From the sequence record PP239276.1: a DNA stretch of 64,000 nucleotides. One strand, 5' to 3'. The stretch comes from Escherichia phage BME3. The notes beneath the pieces were generated by a model, which saw only the letters and a list, made by a program, of their open reading frames with translations, had not been told where the DNA came from and searched no databases. A program made the position numbers and the translations under genes. Positions 21,707 through 37,473 of this stretch are shown piece by piece (position 1 is the stretch's first letter; every line of letters starts with the position of its first letter).

Positions 21707-21737
21707 AGAAAAGGAGCCTAATGGCTCCTTTTTTATT
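21707..21737. terminator. bidirectional rho-independent terminator between convergent operons
   Basis: AAAAGGAGCC-TAAT-GGCTCCTTTT hairpin flanked by A-run and T-run, sited between the plus-strand block and the minus-strand tail fibre gene. Confidence 0.7.
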
Positions 21738-24555
21738 AGTCGTAATATTTCAAACCTGTAATAAAGACTGATCCCCAATCGTACAAGCTGGAGTAGTTTA
21801 TTGTCCAAGTAGATGCCGTACCAGAGAATACGTCACGAACAACGTCGCCGTTGGAATAGTAAACATCCACACCAGTATGTCCGTTCCTTGGTATAGTGAA
21901 GGATACTCCTCCTAAATTTCCAGGATATGTGCAGACATAAGGCGATCCAGCTTTTGATGTTTCTCCTGTAGAAGCACCTTCAAGCTGTGGCAACCAAACT
22001 GCAAGGTTACTAGTACCATCTCCAGCGAAAATCTCCGCACCAGTTGCATCCAAGGCAATTATTTCAAAACTTATGGAGGACTGTTTGGCTATCCCTGTTT
22101 TATGCAGAATAGCACGATACCAACCGTTGCCCATAGATATAATATTAGCTTCACTTCCTGTGAATGTACCTGCTGCTAAATCAAAAGTACCCTCATTAAC
22201 TTCAGTTCCTGCTTTTAATCTTAGTTTGGCCTTAGTAATCCCGTTCGCTTTCAAGAAAACAGAGGCAGACCAGTTACGTCCGGCAGATATGTTGTACGCG
22301 TTAGTATATGTCGCAGTTAAGATATGACTACCAGAGGTTGTAGTCGGAGTTAATTTGAATACATTAGCAGTGGTTCCAGCCGGAGAGTTATCAGATGAAG
22401 CTGCAACAGTTAAGTTGGTCTTTACCCACGGGCTTGCGCTTGTTAAGGCGTTGTTGACAAAAATTTGTGTAGCTGTGTTAGCTGTTACACGTCTACCTAC
22501 AGGGGTAGTGCCAACATACTCCAACGGAGCAACCAAGGTGTTAGTGGCTACAAGTGTATCTCCAGAAGCACGAGCAAAAGAGTTCCCACCATTAACCTTA
22601 ACATCTGATGGAAGAGTTTCTTGTGTCAAATCATAGTCCATCACGACAGGTTTATCTTCTACTTTTCCTGCTGTAACGCTAACATTAAAACGTACTAAAG
22701 GAGATAACACATCATTTGCTTCGTCATAATATGCAACATCAAATATCGTAGTACCTGCTGCAAAACCATATTGTTCTACTTGATCTGCATAGGTAAACGT
22801 ATAACTGTTCGTATTAAGCGTTTGTTCAGTTAATACAGATGCTGTTAAGACGTTAATATTACGGAAGTAGTGTTTACTATAACCTTGAGCATCCCATGCT
22901 AAAATTGTATCTTGATTAGACTGGGAAGTAGCTGTTGCTCCAGTTGGAACAGCCATATCAACCCAAACAGGTGATGTTGATGTTAAGTCTGTACCGTCTG
23001 CTGCTGATTTAGCAAGTTTTGTAGCTGCTGTTTGGTATACAGAAGAAATATAATGGATACGACCATCAATACCTTCTTCATAAACATAACCACTGTAGCG
23101 TTCAGCACCATCCACCCAAGAACCAATGATAACATCATCACGTGCCGTAGAGATGGCTCTTTGTACATTTCTGTATTTCTGCCAATCCACACCATTAACT
23201 TCTACACCATATAGATAAGAACGTCCTAGGATCTGCCAAACAATTTTTGCTTGAGAAGCAGGAACTATTGTACGCATCTTATCAAAGATAGCTATCGTAG
23301 CATCATGGTAACGTGTAGTGTTACTGTATCTACCTGCAACAGTCGAAGATGCTGATACAGCATCATTTTCACCTTGTCCCCAAATAATCGCTTTAACCTT
23401 ACTTGCATAAGGTGTGACTTTAGTGATAAAGTTAGTTAAGCATGGCCCATCTGCTGTATTATCCAGATCATACCAGTAGTTGTCTGGTGTACCTGTTCCA
23501 GCTTTATCATCTGCATATTTATCTGCTGCTGATGATCCAGAAGCTGTATTTAACGGGAGAACTTCAGCATTTGCTAAACCACGTTGCGTAGCATATGCAT
23601 TACGGGCTGTTGTGCTACTCATTGCTGCTTTATTTGCACCAGATAGTTCTGTAAAGTGTGCATTTACGTTATCTTGTCCAGCAAAGACAATAACTTCTTT
23701 AATGAATGAATCATCTGTAGCTATTGAGTTATTAAAGATAACGGGTGCTGCTTTGGTGCTCTTAACGCTAATTTTAAGGTATGTTGGAGCAAACCCATAA
23801 AGAGGAATAGAGTCAGAGATATCAAAGTAAGCGTAAGTATTCGTGGTTGTTGTAGTCCACTGGACACTGTTATTACTTAAATCTAATACTTCTACAGTAT
23901 AAGTATCACCATCTAGCGGATCAGCTACATCCCAAGCAACACGAATGTCTCCATAGCTGTTTGCCACGGCTGTTACATTAGAAATAACAGGAATAGCATT
24001 AACACCTAAATAAGAACTATCAGAGGCCACCACTGTTCCTTGATAAGTTGCAGTACAACCTATACGGCAACTGCCATCTTTAAGAGCAGTTATTAATCCT
24101 GTAGGGCTTACAGTAGCTACTTCTGGATCTGTTGTGGTGTACGTAATTACCATGTCTGGAAGGTCTTTAGCACCTTCTGGACTGATTGTAGCAACCAATT
24201 GTTGAGTAGTTCCTGCATCCATAGCAGACAGACTTTCAGTGTACACACTTAATTCTGAAGCATAGCCACCAGATTGATCAGTTAAGACAGCACCTAAATT
24301 ATTTTTAGCTGTCATTATTGCATCAAAACCGCCTTCAGCAACAAACTCCATCATACCATTATTATCTATAACCATTTTGGTATTATCTGAAGATGAAAAA
24401 GCTATATCAAATAACGCACCATCTTCTGGTGAAACTGTGTATGTCAGTTGCTTTTTACTACCAACTATTGCAATACCAATAGAGGAAGTGGTTATAGATG
24501 TAGCTGTTACTACTGAAGCTGATGTTGTTGACATAAATAAAGGAATAGGATACAT
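21736..24555 (-). CDS. tail fibre / host-specificity protein (large)
   Basis: 939 aa, Thr/Ser/Gly-rich beta-rich composition, last gene of structural operon. Confidence 0.5.
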   Translation of the reverse strand: MYPIPLFMSTTSASVVTATSITTSSIGIAIVGSKKQLTYTVSPEDGALFDIAFSSSDNTKMVIDNNGMMEFVAEGGFDAIMTAKNNLGAVLTDQSGGYASELSVYTESLSAMDAGTTQQLVATISPEGAKDLPDMVITYTTTDPEVATVSPTGLITALKDGSCRIGCTATYQGTVVASDSSYLGVNAIPVISNVTAVANSYGDIRVAWDVADPLDGDTYTVEVLDLSNNSVQWTTTTTNTYAYFDISDSIPLYGFAPTYLKISVKSTKAAPVIFNNSIATDDSFIKEVIVFAGQDNVNAHFTELSGANKAAMSSTTARNAYATQRGLANAEVLPLNTASGSSAADKYADDKAGTGTPDNYWYDLDNTADGPCLTNFITKVTPYASKVKAIIWGQGENDAVSASSTVAGRYSNTTRYHDATIAIFDKMRTIVPASQAKIVWQILGRSYLYGVEVNGVDWQKYRNVQRAISTARDDVIIGSWVDGAERYSGYVYEEGIDGRIHYISSVYQTAATKLAKSAADGTDLTSTSPVWVDMAVPTGATATSQSNQDTILAWDAQGYSKHYFRNINVLTASVLTEQTLNTNSYTFTYADQVEQYGFAAGTTIFDVAYYDEANDVLSPLVRFNVSVTAGKVEDKPVVMDYDLTQETLPSDVKVNGGNSFARASGDTLVATNTLVAPLEYVGTTPVGRRVTANTATQIFVNNALTSASPWVKTNLTVAASSDNSPAGTTANVFKLTPTTTSGSHILTATYTNAYNISAGRNWSASVFLKANGITKAKLRLKAGTEVNEGTFDLAAGTFTGSEANIISMGNGWYRAILHKTGIAKQSSISFEIIALDATGAEIFAGDGTSNLAVWLPQLEGASTGETSKAGSPYVCTYPGNLGGVSFTIPRNGHTGVDVYYSNGDVVRDVFSGTASTWTINYSSLYDWGSVFITGLKYYD

Positions 24556-24565
24556 TTAATCTCCT

Positions 24566-24594
24566 TAAATAATAAGCCCCCGAAGGGGCTTTGA
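24566..24594 (-). terminator. rho-independent terminator
   Basis: AGCCCC-CGAA-GGGGCT hairpin with T-run on minus strand. Confidence 0.55.
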
Positions 24595-26556
24595 TTATGT
24601 GCGTTTAGCAACAATAGCATCCACGTAATCGCCAACACCACAATATGTTAGTTGTAGTATTGTTACTCCGTTAGGATCTGTATTAATATCACTAGAACCA
24701 ATTACTTTGTAAGATGGATCTAAAGTAACAGTACGACCTCCAGTGGCATCTTGGATAAGATAAACTATTGCAGAGAATGGTTTAGGTTTTGTACTATCTT
24801 CGACACCAGGCCATGCTTTTATAGTAGCGTTACCAGTAAGATTCAACACATTCATGTTATGTGTTCCTGGAGGTGTCCAGTCTCCTGTAACAGAATTGTT
24901 GGTATATGCTGTAACCTCTATAAAATTAGTTGTTACTTTTGTTGGAACTATATCTTGACCATCTACAGAACTAGTGAGTTCTTCCCATGCTCCATCTTTA
25001 CGAGCATAAGTCTTACCATCACTAGGTGCATCTGTGATACTAGGTAGTGTACCTTGAGAAGTCCAGACAGTTGCAGATGTTTTTAAGAACACCTCGCCCG
25101 TGGAGATATTAAAGGCATAATCACCTTGTTTACCATCACTAGAGATTGGATCTGTTGTTTTAACAATCCAAGTTGCACCGTCTGTACCGTTAGTACCAGC
25201 GTCACCTTTTTCACCCTTATCACCTTTCAAACTACCCATATCTACATATTCAGCAGTTTGAGTTTGTTCATCATAGGTGTAAATGTAAAGATGACCTGTA
25301 TCTTCCGTCAGATAAGCATCACCGTAATTAGCTGTAGGGGGAAGTGCACTTGCAGACGCAACGTGTCCTTTTGCAGTGATTGGAGTACCAGCTAAACGAC
25401 CAACATTTGTCCACTCTGTGGCTCCTTGCAACCAGACCCAAAGTTCATTATTGATCAGATAACCATCACCCTCTTCTCCAGTTTGTGGTAGTTCAGAAGT
25501 GCTAGTCAGAATGTCAATAATGGTCAACCCTGCACCAGTTGGCCCCGTCAAGCCTTGTATACCCTGTTCACCTTGATCACCCTTGTCTCCCTTATCACCT
25601 TTTTCTCCTTTCAGAGAGGCAATATATTCGTCAATAGTACCAACGTTACCAGCATTTAACCAGACTTGATAAGCTGAATCACCAGTGTTACCCTTATCTC
25701 CTTTGTCGCCTTTATCTCCTTTTGGCCCCACTATAGCGCCCATATTGATCCATTCTACACCGTTTGACACGTATAGATATGTACCAATACTCCATGCTTG
25801 AGATGTGTTTCCATGAGATGCAGAAGGAAGATCTGAAACGGAATTAGCTGCGCCTTGGTAATCAAAACCATTAGCATTGTTACCTGGCACACCTTGTGGC
25901 CCCTCTGGGCCAGGCTCCCCTTTATCACCTTTAATTGAGGCAAGATAATCTAGTTCTGTACCTTGGTTTCCTGCTGCAAGCCATACTTCATAAGCAGATT
26001 TACCTTCTGGCCCCTGTGAGTTTACTTTTCTCCAAGCAGTACCATCCCAAGCATACATATTCTCGCCTACAATCCATGCATCTCCTGCATTGTTTCCAGT
26101 TGTAGGTAATTGGTTGGTATTAGATAGCGTCCCTAGTAGCTTTAATGGAGCACCTGGATCACCTTTTAAAGAAGCCAACCACTGTGTCTCAGTGCCTTGG
26201 AAACCATTGTCTACGGCAATCTGGTAAGCTGATTTACCAGCTTCTGGGATGGATTCTCTAAGATCTTCAATTTCAGCTTCAATAGCATCTAATTCTGATT
26301 CTATTTGAGCAATGTCATCTGCATTACCCACATTTTTCCAAGCTGTATCTGAAATCCCTCCAGTAGATGTAGGAGTAGAGTTAGCAGGTACAACTTTAGG
26401 TAGAGAACCTTTCCACTGATAGTAGTTACCGTCAGCTTCAAAGAGCAATGCTTCACGAGCATCTCTTAAGGTAAAACCACTTGCAAAACTTCTACGCTTT
26501 CTATAGCGAGACTCTACCATGTCTGCAATGGCACTATTTGGACGTGTTAAAATCAC
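24595..26556 (-). CDS. tail fibre protein with collagen-like Gly-X-Y repeats
   Basis: GDKGDKGDKGNTG, GEKGDKGDKGDQGEQGIQGLTGPTG and KGDKGEKGDAGTNGTDG triplet runs. Confidence 0.6.
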   Translation of the reverse strand: MILTRPNSAIADMVESRYRKRRSFASGFTLRDAREALLFEADGNYYQWKGSLPKVVPANSTPTSTGGISDTAWKNVGNADDIAQIESELDAIEAEIEDLRESIPEAGKSAYQIAVDNGFQGTETQWLASLKGDPGAPLKLLGTLSNTNQLPTTGNNAGDAWIVGENMYAWDGTAWRKVNSQGPEGKSAYEVWLAAGNQGTELDYLASIKGDKGEPGPEGPQGVPGNNANGFDYQGAANSVSDLPSASHGNTSQAWSIGTYLYVSNGVEWINMGAIVGPKGDKGDKGDKGNTGDSAYQVWLNAGNVGTIDEYIASLKGEKGDKGDKGDQGEQGIQGLTGPTGAGLTIIDILTSTSELPQTGEEGDGYLINNELWVWLQGATEWTNVGRLAGTPITAKGHVASASALPPTANYGDAYLTEDTGHLYIYTYDEQTQTAEYVDMGSLKGDKGEKGDAGTNGTDGATWIVKTTDPISSDGKQGDYAFNISTGEVFLKTSATVWTSQGTLPSITDAPSDGKTYARKDGAWEELTSSVDGQDIVPTKVTTNFIEVTAYTNNSVTGDWTPPGTHNMNVLNLTGNATIKAWPGVEDSTKPKPFSAIVYLIQDATGGRTVTLDPSYKVIGSSDINTDPNGVTILQLTYCGVGDYVDAIVAKRT

Positions 26557-26571
26557 TTTACTACTCCTTTT

Positions 26572-26596
26572 ATAAAGGGGCTTTCGCCCCTTTTAA
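26572..26596 (-). terminator. terminator-like hairpin
   Basis: AAAGGGGC-TTTCG-CCCCTTTT. Confidence 0.4.
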
Positions 26597-29011
26597 TTAA
26601 GCATTATTGACAGTAACAAAAGTAACAGGGTTCAGAGCTTTAATTTTTGTATTCTCTGCTGTAGGTGTTACAATTGGATCTGCAATATCTATTGTGTACA
26701 AACTATTTGTCACATATGTAGCACGTGCTATAGTTGTCACAAGATCGCCGCCATTTGCACCTGCACCTGGAATAACAATCTTAGTACCTGCTGCTTTAGC
26801 GTAGCCATTACTAGCCCAGTTTAAAGCATTAGACTGTAGATAGGTTTGACCTGTAACAGTTGCTTTTATTTTCTCATTATCACTAAAGAAAGCACCACCT
26901 GCTGTAACAACGTGTTTTTTACCGCTTGCACAATGAATAACTGTTCCAGTAGGGAAGTCACGCCCACCTGGGAATTCATCATAATCTGTAAAATATTGTT
27001 CAGAAATAGTGGTTAAGACTGGCCCACGATGACCTGTACCATCAACAGCAGTTGGAACACCAAAGTTATTTCCAACCTGATCGCAACGATCCGTGTAGAT
27101 TTTAGCAAAAGAAACTGTTGTTTTATCTCCGCTAAGTGCTGTACATCCTACCCACTTCATATAAGTGAATTGGCTGCGAGTATAGAAACCGCCACCACTT
27201 CCTTCTCCGCTTCCGTGTTGACCAATAAAGTCAATACTACGGCAACGAATATTATTAAAAGTAGAGCTAGATGGTAGCCCACGCCATTTAAAATCATTAC
27301 AATTGATGTTACTAACAATTGTAGAGTTTTCCCAGGCGTCTGATCCAGCCGTTGCAATCTCAATCGAAGATTCTGGAATATCCAAATTCTTAATTGTAAA
27401 GTTAATTGGTGGCCCCGCATATCTTCCACCGTTAACACCCCAGTCAATAAAGACCATGCGTGTTGAAACAGACGGATCATTAAGCAGATAACCAGTTAAA
27501 CCATCAACTTCAAAGTCTTGGCATCCGTATAATGCAACACCACAAGTAGTTAAACCTGTACCTGTTGAAACTGCTGTGTTAGGATAAACTTCGTTATCAC
27601 GTATTGTGAAGTTTTTACCCATTTCAACGTGTAGACATTGACGGCAATTGTAAACTCTATTTCCAACGATACTGAAGTTACGTACATATTGTGAATCAGG
27701 AGCATCAACACCATATGGGCCACTACCTGCTACACCAATACCAATACCCCAGTTTGCACCTTGTCCAGAAGCATCTACGTTAGCAATGTGGTTATTCTCG
27801 ATGATCAAACCTTCAGTGTAGTGTCTTTGAACTACGTTAAGTTCAATAGCATCACCTTTGATATCGTGAATGTAGTTGTTAGAGTAACGCCCATAGGTCA
27901 TTACTTCTCCAGTACCTTGTTGCAGGATCGCATATTTACAACCATACATCTCGTTGTAACTGAAGTCCAACGTACCTTCACTTGTCATTGCTTGCATTAA
28001 GAATGCTGCTGTAGATGTTGCGTTGGAGAAGATATTACGATAGAATCGGCAATCACCACCTAACATCTTAACATAACATTTTTCAAAGCGAACGTTTTCA
28101 ATCCAACAGGACACAGTAGAAATCATTGTTCCACCGTTACCAGTGAATGTACCACCATACCAACGAATACCAGACATAGCAATTGAGCTTGTGAATCTAT
28201 AATTCTTATCTGCACGTACTTGAATGTTATTCGTGTTAGCGAAAGTAATGGTTTTTAGAATTGCTTGAGTATCATCGGTAACTCCATCACCAATTGCACC
28301 AAACTGCTCAGGCGTTACAAAGTATTGAGCTTGTAACAGGTTGCCTCCAGATGGAAGACCAACCATTGCTGCACCAGTAGTAGATGACAAAAGGTTTTTC
28401 TCTACGTAAGAAGTAGAGGCTGTTGTTTTACCAATAAAAGCAAACAATTTGTTAGGTAGACCAGTAGACGGATCTAAACCTAATGGTTCTGCCAGAATAA
28501 TTTTACTATCTTTAATAGTAAATGCTTCACCCTGAATCTGAATTACACCGTTAATGGTGACAATAGCATTATCAAAGATATAAGGAGGACTGATTTCTGT
28601 TTCATATCCTGTAGCACCTTTAAAATACCAAGGATACACATCTGAAGCTAACTGTTCAGTTTTAAGAGCGTACAGAGTCCAGTTACTGTCTCCTACAGGT
28701 GTACCCTGCATAGGTACAGGGTTCGCAGTAGTGGCAGATGGGGCATAGTAGTACCCACTCAAGATACCGTTTTCAAAATAACGTAACTGGTTAAATACAG
28801 TTTCAGTTGATCCTGCTGACCAAGCAACAGGACTCTTAAAGAAGAAGTTATCAACAAGTGCTTTACGCAGTGTAGGTATTAAACCTGTTTCGGTTTCTAC
28901 AGTTGCTGTAGCATCCCCGTTAATAACATCATGCATCTGGTTAGACGAGAATATAACCAGATCAACACCTTGTTCTAGTGTCGTAGCAGGATATGTTGGA
29001 AAATTCGCCAT
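26597..29011 (-). CDS. tailspike-like protein, probable right-handed beta-helix (depolymerase candidate)
   Basis: 804 aa; repetitive N/G/T-rich segments with motifs such as NNYIHDIKGDAIELNVV typical of pectate-lyase-like beta-helices. Confidence 0.5.
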   Translation of the reverse strand: MANFPTYPATTLEQGVDLVIFSSNQMHDVINGDATATVETETGLIPTLRKALVDNFFFKSPVAWSAGSTETVFNQLRYFENGILSGYYYAPSATTANPVPMQGTPVGDSNWTLYALKTEQLASDVYPWYFKGATGYETEISPPYIFDNAIVTINGVIQIQGEAFTIKDSKIILAEPLGLDPSTGLPNKLFAFIGKTTASTSYVEKNLLSSTTGAAMVGLPSGGNLLQAQYFVTPEQFGAIGDGVTDDTQAILKTITFANTNNIQVRADKNYRFTSSIAMSGIRWYGGTFTGNGGTMISTVSCWIENVRFEKCYVKMLGGDCRFYRNIFSNATSTAAFLMQAMTSEGTLDFSYNEMYGCKYAILQQGTGEVMTYGRYSNNYIHDIKGDAIELNVVQRHYTEGLIIENNHIANVDASGQGANWGIGIGVAGSGPYGVDAPDSQYVRNFSIVGNRVYNCRQCLHVEMGKNFTIRDNEVYPNTAVSTGTGLTTCGVALYGCQDFEVDGLTGYLLNDPSVSTRMVFIDWGVNGGRYAGPPINFTIKNLDIPESSIEIATAGSDAWENSTIVSNINCNDFKWRGLPSSSTFNNIRCRSIDFIGQHGSGEGSGGGFYTRSQFTYMKWVGCTALSGDKTTVSFAKIYTDRCDQVGNNFGVPTAVDGTGHRGPVLTTISEQYFTDYDEFPGGRDFPTGTVIHCASGKKHVVTAGGAFFSDNEKIKATVTGQTYLQSNALNWASNGYAKAAGTKIVIPGAGANGGDLVTTIARATYVTNSLYTIDIADPIVTPTAENTKIKALNPVTFVTVNNA

Positions 29012-29352
29012 TAATTTTTGTCCTTACTTTGTGTGCGCTTCGTAATCTCCTCTAGCATTAATTGAACAGGAGCATTTTTTAAATCCATTATTTTTTCAAT
29101 CTTCTGTTCTAAGGCAGTATTATTTGCCATTAATGTAGAGTTGATCTGGTTAAGCATTTGCGCAAGTTCTGCTTTGGTAGCATAAGTGGATTCAACAAAC
29201 ACCAACTTCTTTTCTAGTTCGCGGTATTTGTCTTCCATTTTATCCAAATCACTTGCTATATCATCTATCTTCTGTTTGAAGACCACCCAGATTACGCCAA
29301 TAAGAGGGATAATCGCCTCTTTAGCGATATCCCATACTTCTGTTAGCTCCAT
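29011..29352 (-). CDS. hypothetical coiled-coil protein
   Basis: 113 aa, hydrophobic N-terminus then heptad-rich sequence. Confidence 0.45.
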   Translation of the reverse strand: MELTEVWDIAKEAIIPLIGVIWVVFKQKIDDIASDLDKMEDKYRELEKKLVFVESTYATKAELAQMLNQINSTLMANNTALEQKIEKIMDLKNAPVQLMLEEITKRTQSKDKN

Positions 29353-29361
29353 ACATTACCT

Positions 29362-29913
29362 CTATTTCTTAGGTCTTGTAGGCCAAGTTATATTAGGTGC
29401 ATCTTCAACGTTAATTTGAATTAATGTTGCACGATAGAGTTTAACTTTTCCTAACCAATCTTTTTGTTCTTCAGATAAACCTTGTAATTCCTCTAAATCT
29501 TGAATCGCAGACACTTGATTCGTAGCCCAAGTTAACTCCTTTTCTAACTTAAGAGTAGCATCTTCAATAGCAAGATTATTGTGAGGAACAAATTTACCTT
29601 CAACATATTGCCAAGAGCCAATATTACTTTCATCTTCTATTTTATCTGGTACATTATATGTAACTAAAATAGATTGTCCGGCAGGGAAATAGGTAGTAAC
29701 ATCTTTAGTAGCACCACGTACAATATTATTATCATCTAAGGTAATAAAATAAGCGTCGGGATATTCAGCCATCAAGGTTTTTTGAAGTTGATACCAATCA
29801 TTACCATCCTTGTCTTGCAAAAAACCACCGCCAACAGAAAGATAAAGAATGTTTTCCTCTGTTAATTCCGGTTCGTACAATTCAAAACCTGTAAAAATAA
29901 CATCTTTTTTCAT
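29362..29913 (-). CDS. putative tail fibre assembly protein
   Basis: 183 aa adjacent to fibre genes; positional inference. Confidence 0.35.
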   Translation of the reverse strand: MKKDVIFTGFELYEPELTEENILYLSVGGGFLQDKDGNDWYQLQKTLMAEYPDAYFITLDDNNIVRGATKDVTTYFPAGQSILVTYNVPDKIEDESNIGSWQYVEGKFVPHNNLAIEDATLKLEKELTWATNQVSAIQDLEELQGLSEEQKDWLGKVKLYRATLIQINVEDAPNITWPTRPKK

Positions 29914-29922
29914 AGACTCTCC

Positions 29923-30906
29923 TTATGAAACGTTGGTTACTGTTATCCAGCTACCATTAATATAATATTGTAGCGGGGCTGACCAATACCAAGCACCACG
30001 AAGTTCTTTCTTATCACCAAAGCCCCAACCTGTGATCACGTGACCAGCATAGAAACGAGACTCAGACACACCAGCTTGGATACGTGCTCCTAGACGGATA
30101 GCAGACACAACAGAAGAAACTCTATTGTTAATGTTATTAATTTGGCCTTGCAAGTTGCTATTAACGTTGTTAATATTATTTTGCAGTGTGCTTTGCAATG
30201 AGTTTAGTCTTGAGTTAAGATAATCTAATCTTACAAGAGCATTACCATTACCAGTATCTTGACCAGAATTAGAACGAGGGTTGTCTATTAAAACATAACC
30301 TGCATCATACAAACGGACTCCACAAGATGTTCCTCCAGTAGATGGATTTATTCTATAAATATAGAGTTGACCACCTGCACCTGGTTCAGAAGACATATTG
30401 CCTACTGTTTGTCCGTTATAGTTTCTAAAAAATAATGTTGCAGGATCTGTAGCACCTGTACCACAAGTGTAAATATCACCTGCATAGATAGCACCACCAT
30501 TATCACGCTTAACAAGGACATTTCCTACAACTTGGTTTGATGTTGCGTCTGTAATGTTAGCTGATAAGTGATTATGACTATTATCTACGACTTGAATAGA
30601 TAATGTTACAGCAGCATTACCATTCCATGTAACTTCACCTGTAGCATCACCTGCCATTGTAATTTTAGTACCGACTATAGGAAGATATGTAGTAGGCAAT
30701 GTTGGGAAGAATTCATCTTGCATATAGCGAATCCAAGACCCAATATTGTTTAAGATCCAGTTCATTTCTTCACAAGTCATAATCTGACCAAAATCCATAC
30801 CAACATTACGGATGGTTTCTTTTGGTCTAATCTTGTTTGTGTTTCCCGTTCCTGGGAGGGTTACTGTTTGTGTCGCCCAGTCAGGGTAGTATTGTGGCTT
30901 TGCCAT
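29923..30906 (-). CDS. tail fibre protein
   Basis: 327 aa; central Asn-rich coiled segment NNINNVNSNLQGQINNINNRV. Confidence 0.45.
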   Translation of the reverse strand: MAKPQYYPDWATQTVTLPGTGNTNKIRPKETIRNVGMDFGQIMTCEEMNWILNNIGSWIRYMQDEFFPTLPTTYLPIVGTKITMAGDATGEVTWNGNAAVTLSIQVVDNSHNHLSANITDATSNQVVGNVLVKRDNGGAIYAGDIYTCGTGATDPATLFFRNYNGQTVGNMSSEPGAGGQLYIYRINPSTGGTSCGVRLYDAGYVLIDNPRSNSGQDTGNGNALVRLDYLNSRLNSLQSTLQNNINNVNSNLQGQINNINNRVSSVVSAIRLGARIQAGVSESRFYAGHVITGWGFGDKKELRGAWYWSAPLQYYINGSWITVTNVS

Positions 30907-30919
30907 TAAGGGTAACTCC

Positions 30920-31549
30920 TTATTCTATTTGAGCTATCAGCATAGTCATTCGCCCTGTATCATCTCCTTCAGCCTCTGTGTAAAGAGAACCTAAACCACC
31001 TATACCATGAGGTGGCTTTGTGGCATAATAGGAAGTGAAACCAAAGGCTGCACCCGCTTTCGCACCTAAGCGATAACTGCTTAGGATCGGGAAAACGTTA
31101 AGTAACTGTGCTACTGCCTGATCGGATTGTAGACACAAATTATAAAAGAATACGTCGAATGTTTTATTTAATCCAACGTATGTATTGATCGTTTCTTTTT
31201 CTGTTCCTGTAAAACGAGCGAACATATCAATGATATCATCTCGCGTACCAGAAGACGCAACACGATAAGCCCTGATTTTTAATATTGTACGATACTCTTC
31301 ATCCGTAGCACCATTTCTCTCCATCCCCATCTCTTCACCAATAAGATCTAAATACTTACCAGTTGCAGTAGAGATTAAGCGGTGTTTGGCAAGATAGATC
31401 ATTGCCTGATCTATCTTTTGTTTTTCGCTAGAAATGATATAGAGTAGTTTGACAATGTTCGGAGAAGATTTAAAATCTTCAATCAGTAGGTCTTTAACAT
31501 CTTCATTGATACTATCCCACGTTGTCACATGGTCAACACTCACTGCCAT
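30920..31549 (-). CDS. putative baseplate protein
   Basis: position between baseplate J-like gene and fibres. Confidence 0.4.
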   Translation of the reverse strand: MAVSVDHVTTWDSINEDVKDLLIEDFKSSPNIVKLLYIISSEKQKIDQAMIYLAKHRLISTATGKYLDLIGEEMGMERNGATDEEYRTILKIRAYRVASSGTRDDIIDMFARFTGTEKETINTYVGLNKTFDVFFYNLCLQSDQAVAQLLNVFPILSSYRLGAKAGAAFGFTSYYATKPPHGIGGLGSLYTEAEGDDTGRMTMLIAQIE

Positions 31550-31551
31550 TT

Positions 31552-33039
31552 TTAGACTCCGTACTCGTAGGAAATATTATCAAGGTCAAAGGATGGTACA
31601 ACATTGTACGCTGGAGTGATATCTCCCTCATTATATTTACTGTCATCCTCAGTATTAAGTTTAACATAAACACGGAGAGAAGTCAAGCGTCCGAATGCAA
31701 GTGCAGAATAAATTACACCTTTTATCTGGTCGTTAGTTACTGTTGACCCTAATTCAAAATAAGCCTGTAAGTTTGCAAGAGCAGAAACAATATTTTCCCT
31801 TTCTGTTGTACTTAACACACTACCATTACCAGTTTGATATACCAGTTTAAGTGAGTATTCCGCATTATCACCAGGAGAAAAACGAATTACTTCTTGACCA
31901 CCATCTTCTGTTATGATAGTAATTGCTGTCGTACCATAAGTTAAGGTGTTAATAGGCTTAGTATTATAAATAACCTGTGCAACTTCTTCTGCTGTACCAC
32001 CATACACAATAGTCTGGAATGTCATAGCTGGAGCATGTTCCTGATCGTGTAGTGTAGGGTTATCATAAATCTTAACCTTTGTCACGCCATCTGTCAGTAA
32101 TAGAGCTTTAACAATAGCAGCACGAGTAGCAGCATTAGCTTCATCCATGTTATCATTGAAACGAGAACGGAATTCTGCATCTGTTTCAACATCTGTACCT
32201 GGAGAGAACGGATAGAAGTTACCTGTATCTAAAAAGCCTGTAAACGTTGAAGAAATACCTGTAATACTTTCTGTACCTACTGGATTGTAGCCAACGTCTG
32301 AACACGTAACTGGAATTTCACTCCATTTTGTACCAATTGCAATAGATGCATAAAATTTTACTGGTGTTACTAGACCTATTGGGTTAACATTATCTTCTGG
32401 ATTATAACCCATGTAAACATTACTAGCATCATTCCATACTAAAGCACGATCTGTTGTTGATACGTTAGCTTTAATGAAATTCGTGAGATCTACAATAAAG
32501 TTTGTATTGCTAGGACTTAGTGTTTTACTGTTAAGCCCACCATCAATAGCACTTTGAATGTAGAAAGTAATGGAAGTTTCACCAGAAGCTGTTGCGTTTG
32601 CTTTAGAAATGGTATATGCTCCAATCTTAGCATTCAACATTGTCGGTGCACTGACATAATATGTCAAATCGTTATCGGCATTAAAATAAACATCTGTGCT
32701 TAGTTCATAAGTCCAAGCTGCCTTATTGTTAGATTTAACATAAGCATAACCACTACCAGCAGAAGCAGCTTTACGATAAAAACCTCTTTTAGAGAAGATT
32801 TCATCAAGGTAAATACCTTCTGCACCATCTAAGGTTTGGGTATTGTAAACACCTTGCATACCTTCCCAAAGGGTGTAATCTGTATATGCAATAATACGAA
32901 ACAGTTGACCAAAGACAGTATCTTCAGATGTAGCTGTATCTGCACCGAAAGTGTTTTTCAATGCTGTCATATAATTATTTAAAATATCATCAAACGTTGG
33001 AATTACAAAACCAGCATCTGTTAAACCATAATCTGCCAT
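31552..33039 (-). CDS. putative baseplate wedge (J-like) protein
   Basis: 495 aa, operon position. Confidence 0.45.
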   Translation of the reverse strand: MADYGLTDAGFVIPTFDDILNNYMTALKNTFGADTATSEDTVFGQLFRIIAYTDYTLWEGMQGVYNTQTLDGAEGIYLDEIFSKRGFYRKAASAGSGYAYVKSNNKAAWTYELSTDVYFNADNDLTYYVSAPTMLNAKIGAYTISKANATASGETSITFYIQSAIDGGLNSKTLSPSNTNFIVDLTNFIKANVSTTDRALVWNDASNVYMGYNPEDNVNPIGLVTPVKFYASIAIGTKWSEIPVTCSDVGYNPVGTESITGISSTFTGFLDTGNFYPFSPGTDVETDAEFRSRFNDNMDEANAATRAAIVKALLLTDGVTKVKIYDNPTLHDQEHAPAMTFQTIVYGGTAEEVAQVIYNTKPINTLTYGTTAITIITEDGGQEVIRFSPGDNAEYSLKLVYQTGNGSVLSTTERENIVSALANLQAYFELGSTVTNDQIKGVIYSALAFGRLTSLRVYVKLNTEDDSKYNEGDITPAYNVVPSFDLDNISYEYGV

Positions 33040-33284
33040 TAGTTATCCTCCTTATCAGGGGCAGGTGATCTGCCCCAACGTAAATCTATTAAATTCTTCA
33101 TTAGTCTGGATGGTGTGATCATAAAAACAAAAGCCCAGCCCATCCATTCAGGAATTTCTTTATCAATTCCCAAATAAATAAACATACTGGACATAACAAT
33201 CATACCAATAGCATTCCAAACTTTAGTAGAACTGACTTTATTATCAGGATATGTACAAAACATACCTATTAAAAATTTTCTCAT
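33039..33284 (-). CDS. small membrane protein
   Basis: two hydrophobic stretches (MIVMSSMFIYLGI, WAFVFMITP), coupled to flanking genes. Confidence 0.45.
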   Translation of the reverse strand: MRKFLIGMFCTYPDNKVSSTKVWNAIGMIVMSSMFIYLGIDKEIPEWMGWAFVFMITPSRLMKNLIDLRWGRSPAPDKEDN

Positions 33285-33589
33285 GGTGCGTTCTCATTAC
33301 TTTTTAAATCACGATATACAGCTAATTCCCCAAGGTCTACAGAACCCGCTGAATGCACAAGTACAGCAGCACTAAGACTAATGGCAGTAGTACCTGGGGC
33401 AATATCAGCAGGTAGGGAATACGCCCTTTGCGTCTCCTTGTCATAGATAACCTTATACCCACCCAAATCCACACCAACTGAGAAGTAAACAACCTCAGAT
33501 TGTTTAACTCCAAAGTGACGGGCTACTGCTTGTTTATTGGTTAAGATTCCGGTTGAACCTTTACCACCTTGGGAGAACATTTCGTTCAT
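33281..33589 (-). CDS. hypothetical protein (baseplate region)
   Basis: 102 aa. Confidence 0.4.
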   Translation of the reverse strand: MNEMFSQGGKGSTGILTNKQAVARHFGVKQSEVVYFSVGVDLGGYKVIYDKETQRAYSLPADIAPGTTAISLSAAVLVHSAGSVDLGELAVYRDLKSNENAP

Positions 33590-33602
33590 AACAACCTGTT
33601 TA

Positions 33603-33636
33603 TTTTTCTAAAAAACCCCGCCAAAGCGGGGGTTAG
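33603..33636 (-). terminator. rho-independent terminator
   Basis: AACCCCGC-CAAA-GCGGGGTT hairpin followed by T6 on minus strand. Confidence 0.65.
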
Positions 33637-33638
33637 TT

Positions 33639-35297
33639 TTACACGTAAGCACTCTCGAACTTACAGAACCAAGTCGTTCCTTCATCAGTTGTTGACAACC
33701 TAAAAACTTGTGTTCCAGCTGCTGTCAAAGATGGGGTACTGCTTGCTAATTTAACATTTTCACCAAATGTTATTGTTTTAGATGTTGTTGAATAGACAGC
33801 CAAAAGAACCTCAACATAACCAGTTAGTGTATTTGTTAATACTGCTGGAGTTATTGTTACATCCCCTGTAACTGTAGCTGCGATGTAAGATGCGTCTGAA
33901 AAGTCAGGCGCATAACTTGCTGTTGGCGTCTCGAACTTTGTACTTCTTACCAATACAGGAACTCCAACATTTTTCCTGAAAATTGTACTATTGCAAACCA
34001 TATCATACTCTATACCAACAAAATTCTTAGCTGCGAGTATGTTAGTAAATGTCTGATCCACAGAGTAAATATGAGTTATCAGCCTTGCCACCCATGCTGG
34101 TGAGTTTGAGTTTTCACACTCAATGAATGAGCAATTGCTACTGCCAACGGCGAATGGCATTAGTGATGCCGCATATGCAGATAACCCTGCGTCATTAAAC
34201 GCATTCATATTCACAAACGTCTGGCATTGAGAGAACGTATTACCGGTGGCTCCACCATCAATAAAAAAGCCAATCCCGCCGTTAATATAACCATCTAAAG
34301 CATCCAAATTTGCTTTCGTATAATCCCATTTTGACGGTGAATCAGCAAAGCACTGATTGAAGGAATTGTTTATTGAGTTCTGTACAACAAAGCAGCATTT
34401 CATCCTTGAGTTCTGGTCAGTGACTGTATCGTCATACATGCCCCAGTTGTGCACCTTACTAATTCTGTTATTGCCACCACCACGAACCCAGGTACCAAAT
34501 CGGAAATAACGACCTTCACCCATGCTAACCTGATGATCGCTACCTTCAACAATGTGGGCTGTGCAGAGCGGATTGGTTGGTTTTAATACACCAACAGCAT
34601 AAAACTTCAATAGGTGCACACCCATGCCGCCAGCAATATGGATGCCATGACCATCAACGTTGGCTACGTAAATGCCATCTAACTTGTTAGCATAGCCATC
34701 GGATATCTTAAACCCATTAACAGTTTTTGCACGGGCATCAATTAATAAGTTGCTGATATGCCCAGCGTATTGATTACCCATCCCTTTATCGCATTTAACA
34801 GCATAGCCAGAGGAGTCTGCGGCGAAGTCGTCGGTGAGGTACACCCCACCGAAACCAGCATCAATGCTAACATCTCCGTGAATGTGCAGTGTCGTACTGA
34901 TAGGATATTTCTTCCCATTCAGCCTGATAACTTTGCTTACAGTGTTAGGTTGTAGCCAGTCAGGATGGTTAGCAGCACTACTTGGTGCATGTTCTAAACC
35001 TGTTAAAGCTGCCGCAGCATCAATCGCATCCTGTAATGATGGATACATATCCGGGTTGACATTTATAATTTTCTTAAGCGCATTGCCAACAGTACCAGTT
35101 TCGTAATCAATTGACTTATCAAAACCTGAAAAACCTGCTCCATCTGTATCTTTCAACTGGGTGGCTAAAACCACCCCAGTGTCAGTAAGAAAGTTGGAAA
35201 CTGTGCTTTTAACAGTCTTATCAGGTTGGTCTAAAACCAGGTAATCAGAACCATTAACTTTTGATGTTTCGGGTAAATTAGTAATTGTAGTTGACAT
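33639..35297 (-). CDS. second tailspike-like beta-helix protein
   Basis: 552 aa, repetitive G/N/V-rich motifs (GHGIHIAGGMGVHLL). Confidence 0.45.
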   Translation of the reverse strand: MSTTITNLPETSKVNGSDYLVLDQPDKTVKSTVSNFLTDTGVVLATQLKDTDGAGFSGFDKSIDYETGTVGNALKKIINVNPDMYPSLQDAIDAAAALTGLEHAPSSAANHPDWLQPNTVSKVIRLNGKKYPISTTLHIHGDVSIDAGFGGVYLTDDFAADSSGYAVKCDKGMGNQYAGHISNLLIDARAKTVNGFKISDGYANKLDGIYVANVDGHGIHIAGGMGVHLLKFYAVGVLKPTNPLCTAHIVEGSDHQVSMGEGRYFRFGTWVRGGGNNRISKVHNWGMYDDTVTDQNSRMKCCFVVQNSINNSFNQCFADSPSKWDYTKANLDALDGYINGGIGFFIDGGATGNTFSQCQTFVNMNAFNDAGLSAYAASLMPFAVGSSNCSFIECENSNSPAWVARLITHIYSVDQTFTNILAAKNFVGIEYDMVCNSTIFRKNVGVPVLVRSTKFETPTASYAPDFSDASYIAATVTGDVTITPAVLTNTLTGYVEVLLAVYSTTSKTITFGENVKLASSTPSLTAAGTQVFRLSTTDEGTTWFCKFESAYV

Positions 35298-35305
35298 TTT
35301 TACTC

Positions 35306-37465
35306 CTATATATAAAATTTTTGTGTTGTTACTAAATCTTCTCCAGATTTAGTGGCTAATGTAATTCCACTTATAGTGGCAATCTCAACATTTACCTGTT
35401 TAAGAGTGATATCTTGCAAGTAGCAATTCAAAGGCACATTACCCATATAAAACACTTGGGATTTTGAATTAAGAACAGTTATTGAATCATGCATTATTTG
35501 TGGGTAAGCCCATATGTATTGATATAAACCAACAAACTTCTGGTCATTCAATACAATATTGCCTATAATCATTTTCCACAAATATGTTCTATAGTTTGAT
35601 TCAGGATCAAAGCCATATAATGGTGCTAGAGTTGCATCTGGAACAAACCCTGCAAGATAATGTATCTTATCGTAACTAAAACCTAGTTGCTCATTAGGTA
35701 TTGTGATAGCGTCGAAAGATTTTTCCATCTTACCTTCCAACAACCAGTCATAACATTCTGAACAATAAAAGTCAAAGTTCTCTGGGATATAATAATCTTT
35801 AGGGAAGTTAACAAACTCCATCATACCATTACCCAAAATGGATGGCACAAATGGTAACAATGTAACTTTAGCTCCAGGATATGCTAATCTGGTATCTGTT
35901 GCAAATTTAGCAACACGCAGTCCTAATGTTTTAGATAGGAATGCATAATATTCATCATATGGTGTACCAGTTTTATAATTTTTAACTGTACCAACATCTT
36001 GTGCATACAATCCAGTTTCATTATTAAATGCAACTTTGGTTGCATAATCATAAATACACGGCAGATTGGTAGCTGTGTTATACCACCACCACGGTTCACC
36101 AACCTGAATAATAACCGGAAGATCATTAGCAGCGGATATAGAAGCTATCTTATTTATTACACCTTGTAAATAATTCATCCCTTCATCAATTGAAGGAGAT
36201 AAAACATAACTTGGTGGCTCATAACCTGTAGCAGCCAGATCATCATTCCAAGTATGTTGTACCCATTCCACAGGACACACTGTACTCATAATTTCAAAAC
36301 TTAAGGAGTTCATTACTGTGTAGCCCATAGCTTTTGCATTAGCGTGGAAATTATCAAACCAGGCTTCTGTTGCTGGGTTTAAATATTCTGTTCTGTTCAA
36401 AGCCCATTTATTAGAACCAGCATCCCAACTAAATTGATAATAGTGTGACATACCATTATAATGGTTAATCATATCCCTATAACCTAATCTATAGGTGTTG
36501 GAAATAACTCGCTCTGGGGTCAGGTTATACATATCATCATAAGATGTGCACATTCTTATGGTGTGTGCTGGAACATTTAAATTACCCATATTCATCATAC
36601 TGTAACCAGTATCAGGCTCTAGTATGGTAAACTTAAAGGAAAGATCCATATTGTCTACAGGTATAACATCTTCAATTTCTTGATACCTTGCGGAGATCAA
36701 GGAGAAGAACATGTTATCTATCTGTGTAGTGTCAACAACAATATCATTTTCTGGCCCAGATTTTAAATTTGAGAAATCTAATTTGATTATTGCTGTTTTA
36801 CCGTCCTCTGAAACTTCTTCTGCATAAAAGTTTAGAGATACATAATGAACTGTTTCATCCTTCAGTGTCACTGTTAAGGATGGCAATAATTTTTCTTCTT
36901 TTAATCCAGGAACACCTTGACTAAGTTCCATTTTAAACCAAAGTTTCTCTTTACTTAAGTCAGAATGTTCTTGGTAGCCTAATCCTTTGTGATCATATTT
37001 ATCGTAAGTTGACCAAATAATCCCAGCAAGACCAGCCACTGTCCTATTAACCATTCTTGCTGTGAAAGAATCACCATTAGAGATAATAGAACAACTTTCT
37101 GTTGCTTGAGAATCTATTGTCCAAAACTTAGGATCAAACATTCTAGACTTCACAACAGGCCAAGTTAGCGGGGTCGTATTCGATTGATTAGTCGTAATAA
37201 CACAACGAATTTCTTCATTGATCATCATGTTATTTTGACTTATGCTAGTAATCTCAAGAGTAAAATAAAGATCTAAAGAGTTTGCCGGACGTTCATATAC
37301 ATCAACCACTACAGTAGCAGAATCTGCATCAGAAGGGAACGTTACTGTTCCCTGTTTAGCTACATAATCTCTACCAGCGACCGCCGTTCCATCGACGGTC
37401 TTATAGCTGAATGAACTGGCATTTACTCTCGTATTTCGAGTTACAGTAAAAATAGCCTGTTTCAT
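35306..37465 (-). CDS. structural protein (baseplate/tail)
   Basis: 719 aa ORF in structural operon. Confidence 0.45.
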   Translation of the reverse strand: MKQAIFTVTRNTRVNASSFSYKTVDGTAVAGRDYVAKQGTVTFPSDADSATVVVDVYERPANSLDLYFTLEITSISQNNMMINEEIRCVITTNQSNTTPLTWPVVKSRMFDPKFWTIDSQATESCSIISNGDSFTARMVNRTVAGLAGIIWSTYDKYDHKGLGYQEHSDLSKEKLWFKMELSQGVPGLKEEKLLPSLTVTLKDETVHYVSLNFYAEEVSEDGKTAIIKLDFSNLKSGPENDIVVDTTQIDNMFFSLISARYQEIEDVIPVDNMDLSFKFTILEPDTGYSMMNMGNLNVPAHTIRMCTSYDDMYNLTPERVISNTYRLGYRDMINHYNGMSHYYQFSWDAGSNKWALNRTEYLNPATEAWFDNFHANAKAMGYTVMNSLSFEIMSTVCPVEWVQHTWNDDLAATGYEPPSYVLSPSIDEGMNYLQGVINKIASISAANDLPVIIQVGEPWWWYNTATNLPCIYDYATKVAFNNETGLYAQDVGTVKNYKTGTPYDEYYAFLSKTLGLRVAKFATDTRLAYPGAKVTLLPFVPSILGNGMMEFVNFPKDYYIPENFDFYCSECYDWLLEGKMEKSFDAITIPNEQLGFSYDKIHYLAGFVPDATLAPLYGFDPESNYRTYLWKMIIGNIVLNDQKFVGLYQYIWAYPQIMHDSITVLNSKSQVFYMGNVPLNCYLQDITLKQVNVEIATISGITLATKSGEDLVTTQKFYI

Positions 37466-37473
37466 TATTTTCC

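Follow-up and report, generated by a model that had tools for sequence, protein, structure and literature searches.

The adsorption gene cluster and its variable slot

We analysed a stretch of 64,000 nucleotides (nt) from Escherichia phage BME3 (sequence record PP239276.1; hereafter the window), and in particular the tailspike gene K at 33639-35297, which encodes a chimeric spike of 552 amino acids (aa) and stands within a cluster of tail fibre and tailspike genes. The window belongs to a Justusliebigvirus, i.e., a phi92/phAPEC8-like Escherichia coli myophage of the subfamily Stephanstirmvirinae, and is ~98% identical to published genomes. When a 20-kb stretch was compared with Escherichia phages KKE7M, PaulScherrer (Bas60), alia, and PD06, identity was 96-98% over 88-93% of the length. 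Plus-strand genes stop near 21.7 kb and are followed by a long structural module on the minus strand, where all window features described below are located. Within this module, the fibre cluster (21736-40823) is collinear with phi92 genes 140-153, and phi92 genes 137-142 and 145-151 are identical in order and length to the corresponding genes of the window.

An initial annotation had singled out five open reading frames (ORFs) in this region, two as spikes with repetitive, beta-helix-like sequence and three as further fibre-like proteins. All five are present, at exactly 21736-24555, 24595-26556, 26597-29011, 29923-30906, and 33639-35297, with products of 939, 653, 804, 327, and 552 aa, respectively. 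The span assigned to the apparatus was too short, as three further genes (L, M, and N) at 35306-40823 and an orphan spike stub (J) belong to the same region.

K lies between the homologue of gp142 and those of gp144 and gp145, i.e., in the slot of gene 143. This slot is the single hypervariable position of the cluster. In phi92 it holds the endosialidase gp143, which has a C-terminal chaperone domain, whereas here it is occupied by a beta-helix spike of Kuttervirus origin. The first 54 residues of K form an anchor that is 96-100% identical in dozens of relatives, including the endosialidase-type protein of phAPEC8. Behind this anchor, the relatives carry mutually unrelated bodies: an endosialidase in phAPEC8 and, in others, an SGNH esterase, a phosphodiester glycosidase, a BNR sialidase, other beta-helices, or bodies with a Peptidase_S74 chaperone. 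Phages PD06, PaulScherrer, alia, and KKE7M have the same 54-aa anchor and 97-99% DNA identity on both sides of the exchanged cassette described below, but their slots hold other bodies, a different one in each (624-705 aa; of types PF18668, PF27114, and others). Endosialidase domains (PF12217/PF12219) and Peptidase_S74 are carried by the phAPEC8 slot protein P0063 but were not found in K by Pfam.

Origin and fold of the spike K

The remainder of K is related to a different virus group. From residue 44 to 552, K shares 95-96% identity with the C-terminal half of a Kuttervirus tailspike of 992 aa, which is the first of four spikes in Salmonella phage vB_SalM-ps4 (ps4) and also occurs in CECAV_050 and Ackermannviridae phage YX22. 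At the DNA level, the exchanged cassette comprises the spike body and the terminator (33611-35141) and consists of Kuttervirus-type DNA, with 98.7% identity to ps4 over 1531 nt, extending 28 nt beyond the stop codon, and 96.8% identity to YX22. Identity to its own genus ends at 35131-35136 and, relative to PD06, resumes at 33619 (99%). The 5' crossover coincides with a 7-nt sequence, GGAGCAG, that is common to both parents. The 3' crossover falls inside the hairpin and T-tract of the terminator behind K: the ps4 match runs as far as 33611, and identity to PD06 sets in again at 33619. This intrinsic terminator, identified by a terminator scan (hairpin CCCCGC-TTTG-GCGGGG followed by T6; 33616-33631), starts eight bases after the stop codon of K, and comparable hairpins stand behind the spike genes of PaulScherrer, PD06, and ps4.

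Judged from sequence, K is a chimera of a genus-specific anchor and a Kuttervirus-type body, and the exchange of the body is very recent. The Kuttervirus spike of ps4 and YX22 resembles K in its C-terminal half and has the terminator motif in common with it, and the N-terminus of CBA120 TSP1 resembles J. In contrast, the Kuttervirus spike possesses a long N-terminal branching region and a Tail_spike_N domain; K has neither (PF18668 was not found in it by Pfam) and sits on a different anchor and a different baseplate. Exchange of receptor-binding domains between Kutterviruses and Justusliebigviruses at conserved motifs has already been published, and a 'motif one' where the anchor ends and a 'motif three' in the downstream terminator were proposed as recombination hotspots in Kutter-, Gamaleya-, and Justusliebigviruses (PMC10408124). 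The two crossover sites of K correspond to these motifs.

Short sequences common to the two virus groups, such as those at both junctions, are places where assemblers can switch templates, so that a mixed Justusliebigvirus/Kuttervirus sample might have given rise to the chimera as an assembly artefact. Also compatible with an artefact is that the exact combination was found nowhere else: full-length K was in no record of the phage collection searched, the exact protein was absent from a collection of 15 billion proteins, and a 43-nt sequence across the junction was absent from IMG/VR and from JGI metagenome contigs, the latter two being exact-match look-ups and as such weak negatives. However, the insert replaces one domain and its terminator precisely and in frame, and 98-99% identical backbone flanks it on both sides. 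Moreover, it follows the pattern of natural exchange documented for the genus (PMC10408124), and the cassette differs by >1% from every available Kuttervirus. We consider an artefact highly improbable and regard K as a natural chimera.

The fold of the K body became apparent from remote relatives. With residues 75-551 of K as the query, exhaustive HMMER searching retrieved 41 relatives of the body from 1.84 billion representatives, about 35 of them at 24-38% identity over its central part. The pectate-lyase-like family PF12708 is present in one third of the aligned remote relatives (13 of 39), and in the closest ones either PF12708 or Beta_helix (PF13229) overlaps the stretch aligned to K. The profile built from this deep alignment matched a GH55 beta-1,3-glucanase (6e-20), the Sf6 tailspike (8e-15), and a phage pectin lyase (3e-15), as well as mannuronan epimerases; its matches to solved beta-helices are centred on the cap and the first coils. 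AlphaFold2 (AF2) modelling of residues 75-551 with the deeper alignment gave a monomer model with a predicted local distance difference test score (pLDDT) of 85.2 (90-98 in the body) and a predicted template modelling (TM) score of 0.72. The model shows short strands stacked into a long ladder, with a C-terminal beta-sandwich behind it. When this model was compared with the PDB using Foldseek, the top 50 matches were all beta-helix spikes or depolymerases or lyases (probability about 1.0), with the spikes of Sf6, HK620, Acinetobacter AS12 gp42, Klebsiella K64-1 S2-4, Det7, and CBA120 TSP2 as top structural neighbours. Matches in BFVD were annotated as 'pectate lyase superfamily' and tail spike proteins.

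According to the model and the sequence comparisons, K is a right-handed beta-helix tailspike of the trimeric type, with the anchor at residues 1-54, the beta-helix body at ~120-420, and a small C-terminal beta-sandwich at ~450-551. The last ~105 residues match small 'tail fibre C-terminal domain' models in BFVD at 2.3-3 Å root-mean-square deviation. We also observed that the C-terminal ~100 residues of K (33639-33950) and those of the small fibre protein N (40350-40660) share PHROG 7760, i.e., one distal module would be present on two proteins of the same virion.

Several results weigh against the beta-helix assignment. K has no Pfam match, including PF12708 and PF13229 even at E<=10. A first AF2 run with a shallow alignment of 27 close homologues gave a pLDDT of 49 and was unusable, and the structural matches have modest TM-scores (0.3-0.45). 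NCBIfam families and PDB sequences gave no match to K; a profile from the 27-homologue alignment matched only the N-terminal linker of CBA120-type spikes; and a word-indexed profile search with the K body retrieved no relatives below 58% identity. As for the initial annotation of K and of the second spike, C, as repetitive and beta-helix-like, the structural part is borne out by the AF2 model and Foldseek matches of K and by the likeness of C to PDB 6E0V, whereas the repetitiveness is not. A predicted structure without a beta-helix would have refuted the annotation; checked for K, the one spike of the two without a solved homologue, this was not the case. Fixed-lag BLOSUM self-similarity reached maximum z values of 1.7 for C and 2.4 for K against 500 shuffles, with 75% and 20% of the shuffles, respectively, scoring equally high. 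Neighbouring non-helix proteins scored the same in this periodicity test, and amino-acid composition did not discriminate C and K.

K might instead be a beta-helix scaffold that lacks depolymerase activity and only binds or is inactive, or a recent hybrid that works poorly. In K, catalytic residues were not identified, and it matched no characterised enzyme family in Pfam, NCBIfam, or PDB sequence searches. Furthermore, the two parts of the hybrid, anchor and body, stem from different virus families, and with 54 aa the anchor falls far short of the N-terminal region that precedes the body in the 992-aa Kuttervirus protein. On the other hand, the junction leaves the ORF intact and in frame, the body family is strongly conserved over at least 26 clusters from phages and prophages, many other enzyme bodies are found on this anchor in relatives, and the structural neighbours of K are active endoglycosidases. 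Together, these observations make a non-functional or merely binding spike improbable, and we favour an enzymatically active K.

Candidate target of K

In its predicted fold, K resembles polysaccharide-degrading spikes. Among 5426 complete E. coli genomes, 9 have a homologue of the K body in a chromosomal prophage, with identities of about 75% (nucleotide) and about 78% (protein). They come in two forms, a full-length head-binding type and a shorter type. The P22-like tailspikes among them (PF09008 head-binding domain; e.g., P0018) belong to the same body family as K at about 78% aa identity, and the right-handed beta-helix is common to K and the P22-like spikes of Sf6, HK620, and P22. They differ from K in that they carry the head-binding N-terminus of podoviruses, belong to temperate phages, and are more diverged.

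The O-antigen cluster of strain MLI106K1 (NZ_CP116931.1), one of the prophage carriers, lies between galF and gnd, at 31450-39532 of the stretch analysed from that genome, and its O-antigen polymerase gene is present in 80 of the 5426 E. coli genomes (1.5%). Among the matches listed, eight of the nine prophage-bearing genomes carry this polymerase type, and the ninth is a sister strain that may have it too. The association of prophage and O-antigen cluster spans at least two prophage contexts, but it is inflated by clonal relatedness. Separately, we noticed that the flippase gene of MLI106K1 is truncated beside an IS1 element, such that this strain may be rough.

A literature search for serotypes of the prophage-bearing strains found nothing, and the serogroup was approached via the shared O-antigen cluster instead. 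Strain 2011C-4315, which carries this cluster, was typed O153:H2 (PMC4929515), and a strain named CE-O153H30 carries it as well. TW11681, with the same cluster, was reported as O19:H45 (PMC6630672). The spikes of temperate phages generally match the O-antigen of their host, a premise also used in earlier work on these viruses (PMC10408124). Considering this premise together with the shared rare cluster, the K body family is most likely specific for the O-antigen typed as O153 (also O19). K itself would bind and cleave a surface polysaccharide, most likely an O-antigen, with O153 (also reported as O19) as the best lead.

Three points argue against this assignment. The label of the shared cluster is ambiguous between O153 and O19; the target is predicted from prophage homologues that are only about 78% identical to K; and copies 96% identical to K come from phages whose isolation hosts were Salmonella Enteritidis and an avian pathogenic E. 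coli (APEC) strain. Given that the closest copies of the body come from Salmonella and APEC phages, the real target may differ. K could instead recognise some other glycan, for example an O-antigen of Salmonella, a capsule of E. coli, or another O-type, in which case the prophage association would reflect a diverged, paralogous specificity. Indeed, the closest bodies (95-96% aa identity) are those of Kutterviruses from Salmonella Enteritidis and APEC IMT5155, and subtypes of receptor-binding domains with prophage hosts across several serogroups have been reported (PMC10408124). However, Kutterviruses have four spikes, and the isolation host therefore says little about any one of them, while the prophage-bearing genomes converge on an O-antigen cluster that is rare in the species. 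The chance that K targets such another glycan comes close to even; O153/O19-type O-antigen is the target that we carry forward.

Spike C, stub J, and the neighbouring tail proteins

The second spike, C (26597-29011; 804 aa), is located between the homologues of gp149 and gp151, in the order and with the lengths of phi92 genes 149-151. Over its residues 180-804, C can be aligned along the full length of the crystallised phi92 gp150 fragment (PDB 6E0V/6E0W, residues 2-626; 1414 bits), and relative to 6E0V it shows few substitutions and is near-identical. Consistent with this, C falls into PHROG 6117 'colanic acid degradation' (E=7e-270) and contains a TSP_Ig-like C-terminal domain detected by Pfam. 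On these alignments, C is a colanidase tailspike of the phi92 gp150 type, the orthologue of gp150, and going by annotation and literature, it would strip colanic acid. The phi92 record labels gene 150 'colanidase tailspike' with a phi29 gp12-type fold. Spikes of the gp12 type are right-handed beta-helices, and from prior knowledge and annotation we take the fold of 6E0V to be a beta-helix as well.

Sequence support for a beta-helix in C is partial only. The FGAIGDGVTDDT cap motif of C was aligned by hhalign to the K-family beta-helix profile with 88% probability as a single sequence. Comparison of the C family profile with the K family profile gave 79% probability, covering the cap and the first coil, and Beta_helix (Pfam), PF12708, and NosD each matched one member of the C family. 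In the cryo-electron microscopy (cryo-EM) entries 9CUY/9MJN, a chain named 'putative tail fiber protein' has an N-terminus that resembles the N-terminal anchor of C (residues 12-126). The short tail fibre F, described below, also matches a chain of these entries; a related phage thus has a solved baseplate, from which the docking of such anchors might be read.

Directly behind the exchanged cassette lies J (33281-33589), an orphan stub of 102 aa. Residues 1-94 of J match residues 1-95 of CBA120 TSP1 (PDB 4OJ5) with E=4e-49 and about 90% identity; the likeness stops at residue ~94, and the PHROG of J consists of tailspike N-termini. The TGA of J overlaps the ATG of the gp144 homologue (33039-33284, which corresponds approximately to phi92 gene 144). 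J is 100% identical in PD06 and 89-97% identical in other relatives, PaulScherrer, alia, and KKE7M having the same stub, and it is 5'-truncated in ESCO9 and UAB_1. In phi92 it is absent, whereas here the TSP1-type stub follows the slot. By these comparisons, J is a truncated N-terminal domain of a Kuttervirus TSP1-type tailspike and a backbone gene. We ruled out that J was imported with K as a 3' homology arm, because PD06 has an identical J together with a different spike and because backbone identity resumes at 33619, within the terminator.

J may be a remnant or a functional stub. That it is a working part, be it a module for docking or an adaptor that is expressed, or Ackermannviridae sequence serving permanently as a 'landing pad', is possible but rather unlikely. 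If it were, the J pad, the motif at the anchor end, and the terminator would together let myophages capture Kuttervirus spike bodies or genes during co-infection.

The other proteins of the cluster were assigned mostly by their domains and their positions and lengths in phi92. B (24595-26556; 653 aa, 1962 nt as phi92 gene 151) has Pfam matches to PF18668 (Tail_spike_N; E=3e-21), Collagen (E=1e-7), and Fibritin_C (E=1.5e-3), and its N-terminus matches the N-domains of CBA120-type tailspikes. We class it as a trimeric fibre, homologous to gp151. F (29923-30906; 327 aa) is the gp147-type short tail fibre, with a match to tail fibre PHROG 4465 (E=3e-109) and an N-terminus that matches the 'Short tail fiber' chain 9CUY_c. 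Adjoining F is E (29362-29913; gp148 homologue), a tail fibre assembly chaperone of the lambda-gpK type (Caudo_TAP, E=7e-10; PHROG 136 'tail fiber assembly protein'), followed by the small protein D (29011-29352), which agrees with phi92 gene 149 in position and length (342 nt). Two baseplate wedge proteins, G (30920-31549) and H (31552-33039), correspond to gp146 and gp145 with gene lengths of 630 and 1488 nt as in phi92. The fibres of phi92 attach to these wedge proteins, and gp147, the homologue of F, constitutes 'fiber III', attached to the bottom of gp145 (PMC13450770).

At the downstream end of the cluster, the tail-associated protein A (21736-24555; 939 aa) is encoded by a single ORF, whose place in phi92 is taken by two shorter genes, 152 and 153 (609 and 888 nt). 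A contains a Big_2 domain (Pfam, residues 113-170, E=7e-14) and an NCBIfam GTA_spike_fiber ('phage head spike fiber') domain (residues 694-863, E=8e-19), and it matches PHROG 'tail protein' families. Relatives annotate it as a lateral tail fibre or a carbohydrate esterase. From its domains, A may decorate the head or the tail instead of acting as a baseplate fibre. The description of three further fibre-like proteins in the initial annotation thus holds for B and F, while A is an Ig-domain protein with head-spike-fibre-like sequence whose role as a baseplate fibre is unproven.

Upstream of K, L (35306-37465; 2160 nt as phi92 gene 142) is a tail fibre protein homologous to gp142. Its N-terminal and TIM-barrel domains are those of the receptor-binding protein of N4 termed 'non-contractile tail sheath' (PF23845, E=1e-81; PF23844, E=8e-21; matching chains of PDB 9LC0), and a Calx-beta domain (E=2e-9) is present as well. 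In other members of the genus, an L-homologous deacetylase fibre was linked to recognition of enterobacterial common antigen in the BASEL study, and the NGR glycan was suggested as the target on K-12 in the announcement of phage Eryne (PMC8594841, PMC11984140). It may be L, not the two beta-helix spikes, that serves as the main receptor-binding protein on laboratory strains.

M (37474-40350; 958 aa, 2877 nt as phi92 gene 141) is among the largest tail proteins and falls into PHROG 2871 'tail protein'; Pfam, NCBIfam, and PDB sequence searches gave no match. In relatives, M is variously annotated as a glycosidase or hydrolase fibre, without visible evidence. N (40350-40823; 474 nt as phi92 gene 140) is a small tail fibre protein in PHROG 9017 and 7760 and is widespread among phages. 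Beyond the fibre cluster, homologues of phi92 genes 139 (40816-41451), 138 (spike; 41455-42192), and 137 (hub; 42195-43205) were recognised by position and length.

The multivalent apparatus and spike exchange in the genus

For phi92, a multivalent adsorption apparatus was reportedly described by Schwarzer et al. in 2012. At least five receptor-binding proteins are co-assembled in this phage (PMC5380687), and cryo-EM revealed six copies each of three fibre types on the wedge: the L-shaped fibre I bears the enzyme of slot 143 on its tip, fibre II emerges as a branch at the base of fibre I, and irreversible binding is mediated by fibre III (gp147) (PMC13450770). Phages of this genus were compared to a 'Swiss army knife' in the BASEL study of 2021 and in the Eryne announcement, according to which only a few fibre genes vary and some members have O-antigen-specific spikes (PMC8594841, PMC11984140). 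BME3 belongs to the same genus as phi92, has a near-identical gp150, and has the short fibre, the chaperone, and the wedge in common with it, as well as several fibres and spikes that would be co-assembled. The proposal that multiple receptor-binding or depolymerase proteins form a broad or branched apparatus is supported by this cryo-EM work and by collinearity of the window with phi92 genes 137-151.

With a probability of roughly 0.85, we interpret the region as a phi92-like host-adsorption cluster in which K is a beta-helix spike with the anchor of its genus and a body derived from a Kuttervirus, likely directed against an O-antigen. By analogy to phi92, several fibres and spikes would be assembled together on the baseplate wedge. 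B, F (with its chaperone E), L, M, and N are the conserved fibre set, unchanged here, and the variable slot has been refitted with K on the 54-residue anchor. K would then extend the host range, otherwise determined by the conserved fibres, to O153-type hosts.

Both the multivalent apparatus and the exchange of spikes are already published for the genus, and in these respects the present analysis is a rediscovery. What is new is the K allele, i.e., its combination of anchor and body, together with its sharp crossovers, the fold assignment, and the specificity lead. K represents a cleanly delimited and very recent natural domain swap with crossover points of 7-11 nt, and it could serve as a template for host-range engineering in a broad-host-range chassis. 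In addition, it provides a testable prediction of O153/O19-type specificity for a family of spikes that has had no annotation, Pfam domain, or solved structure.

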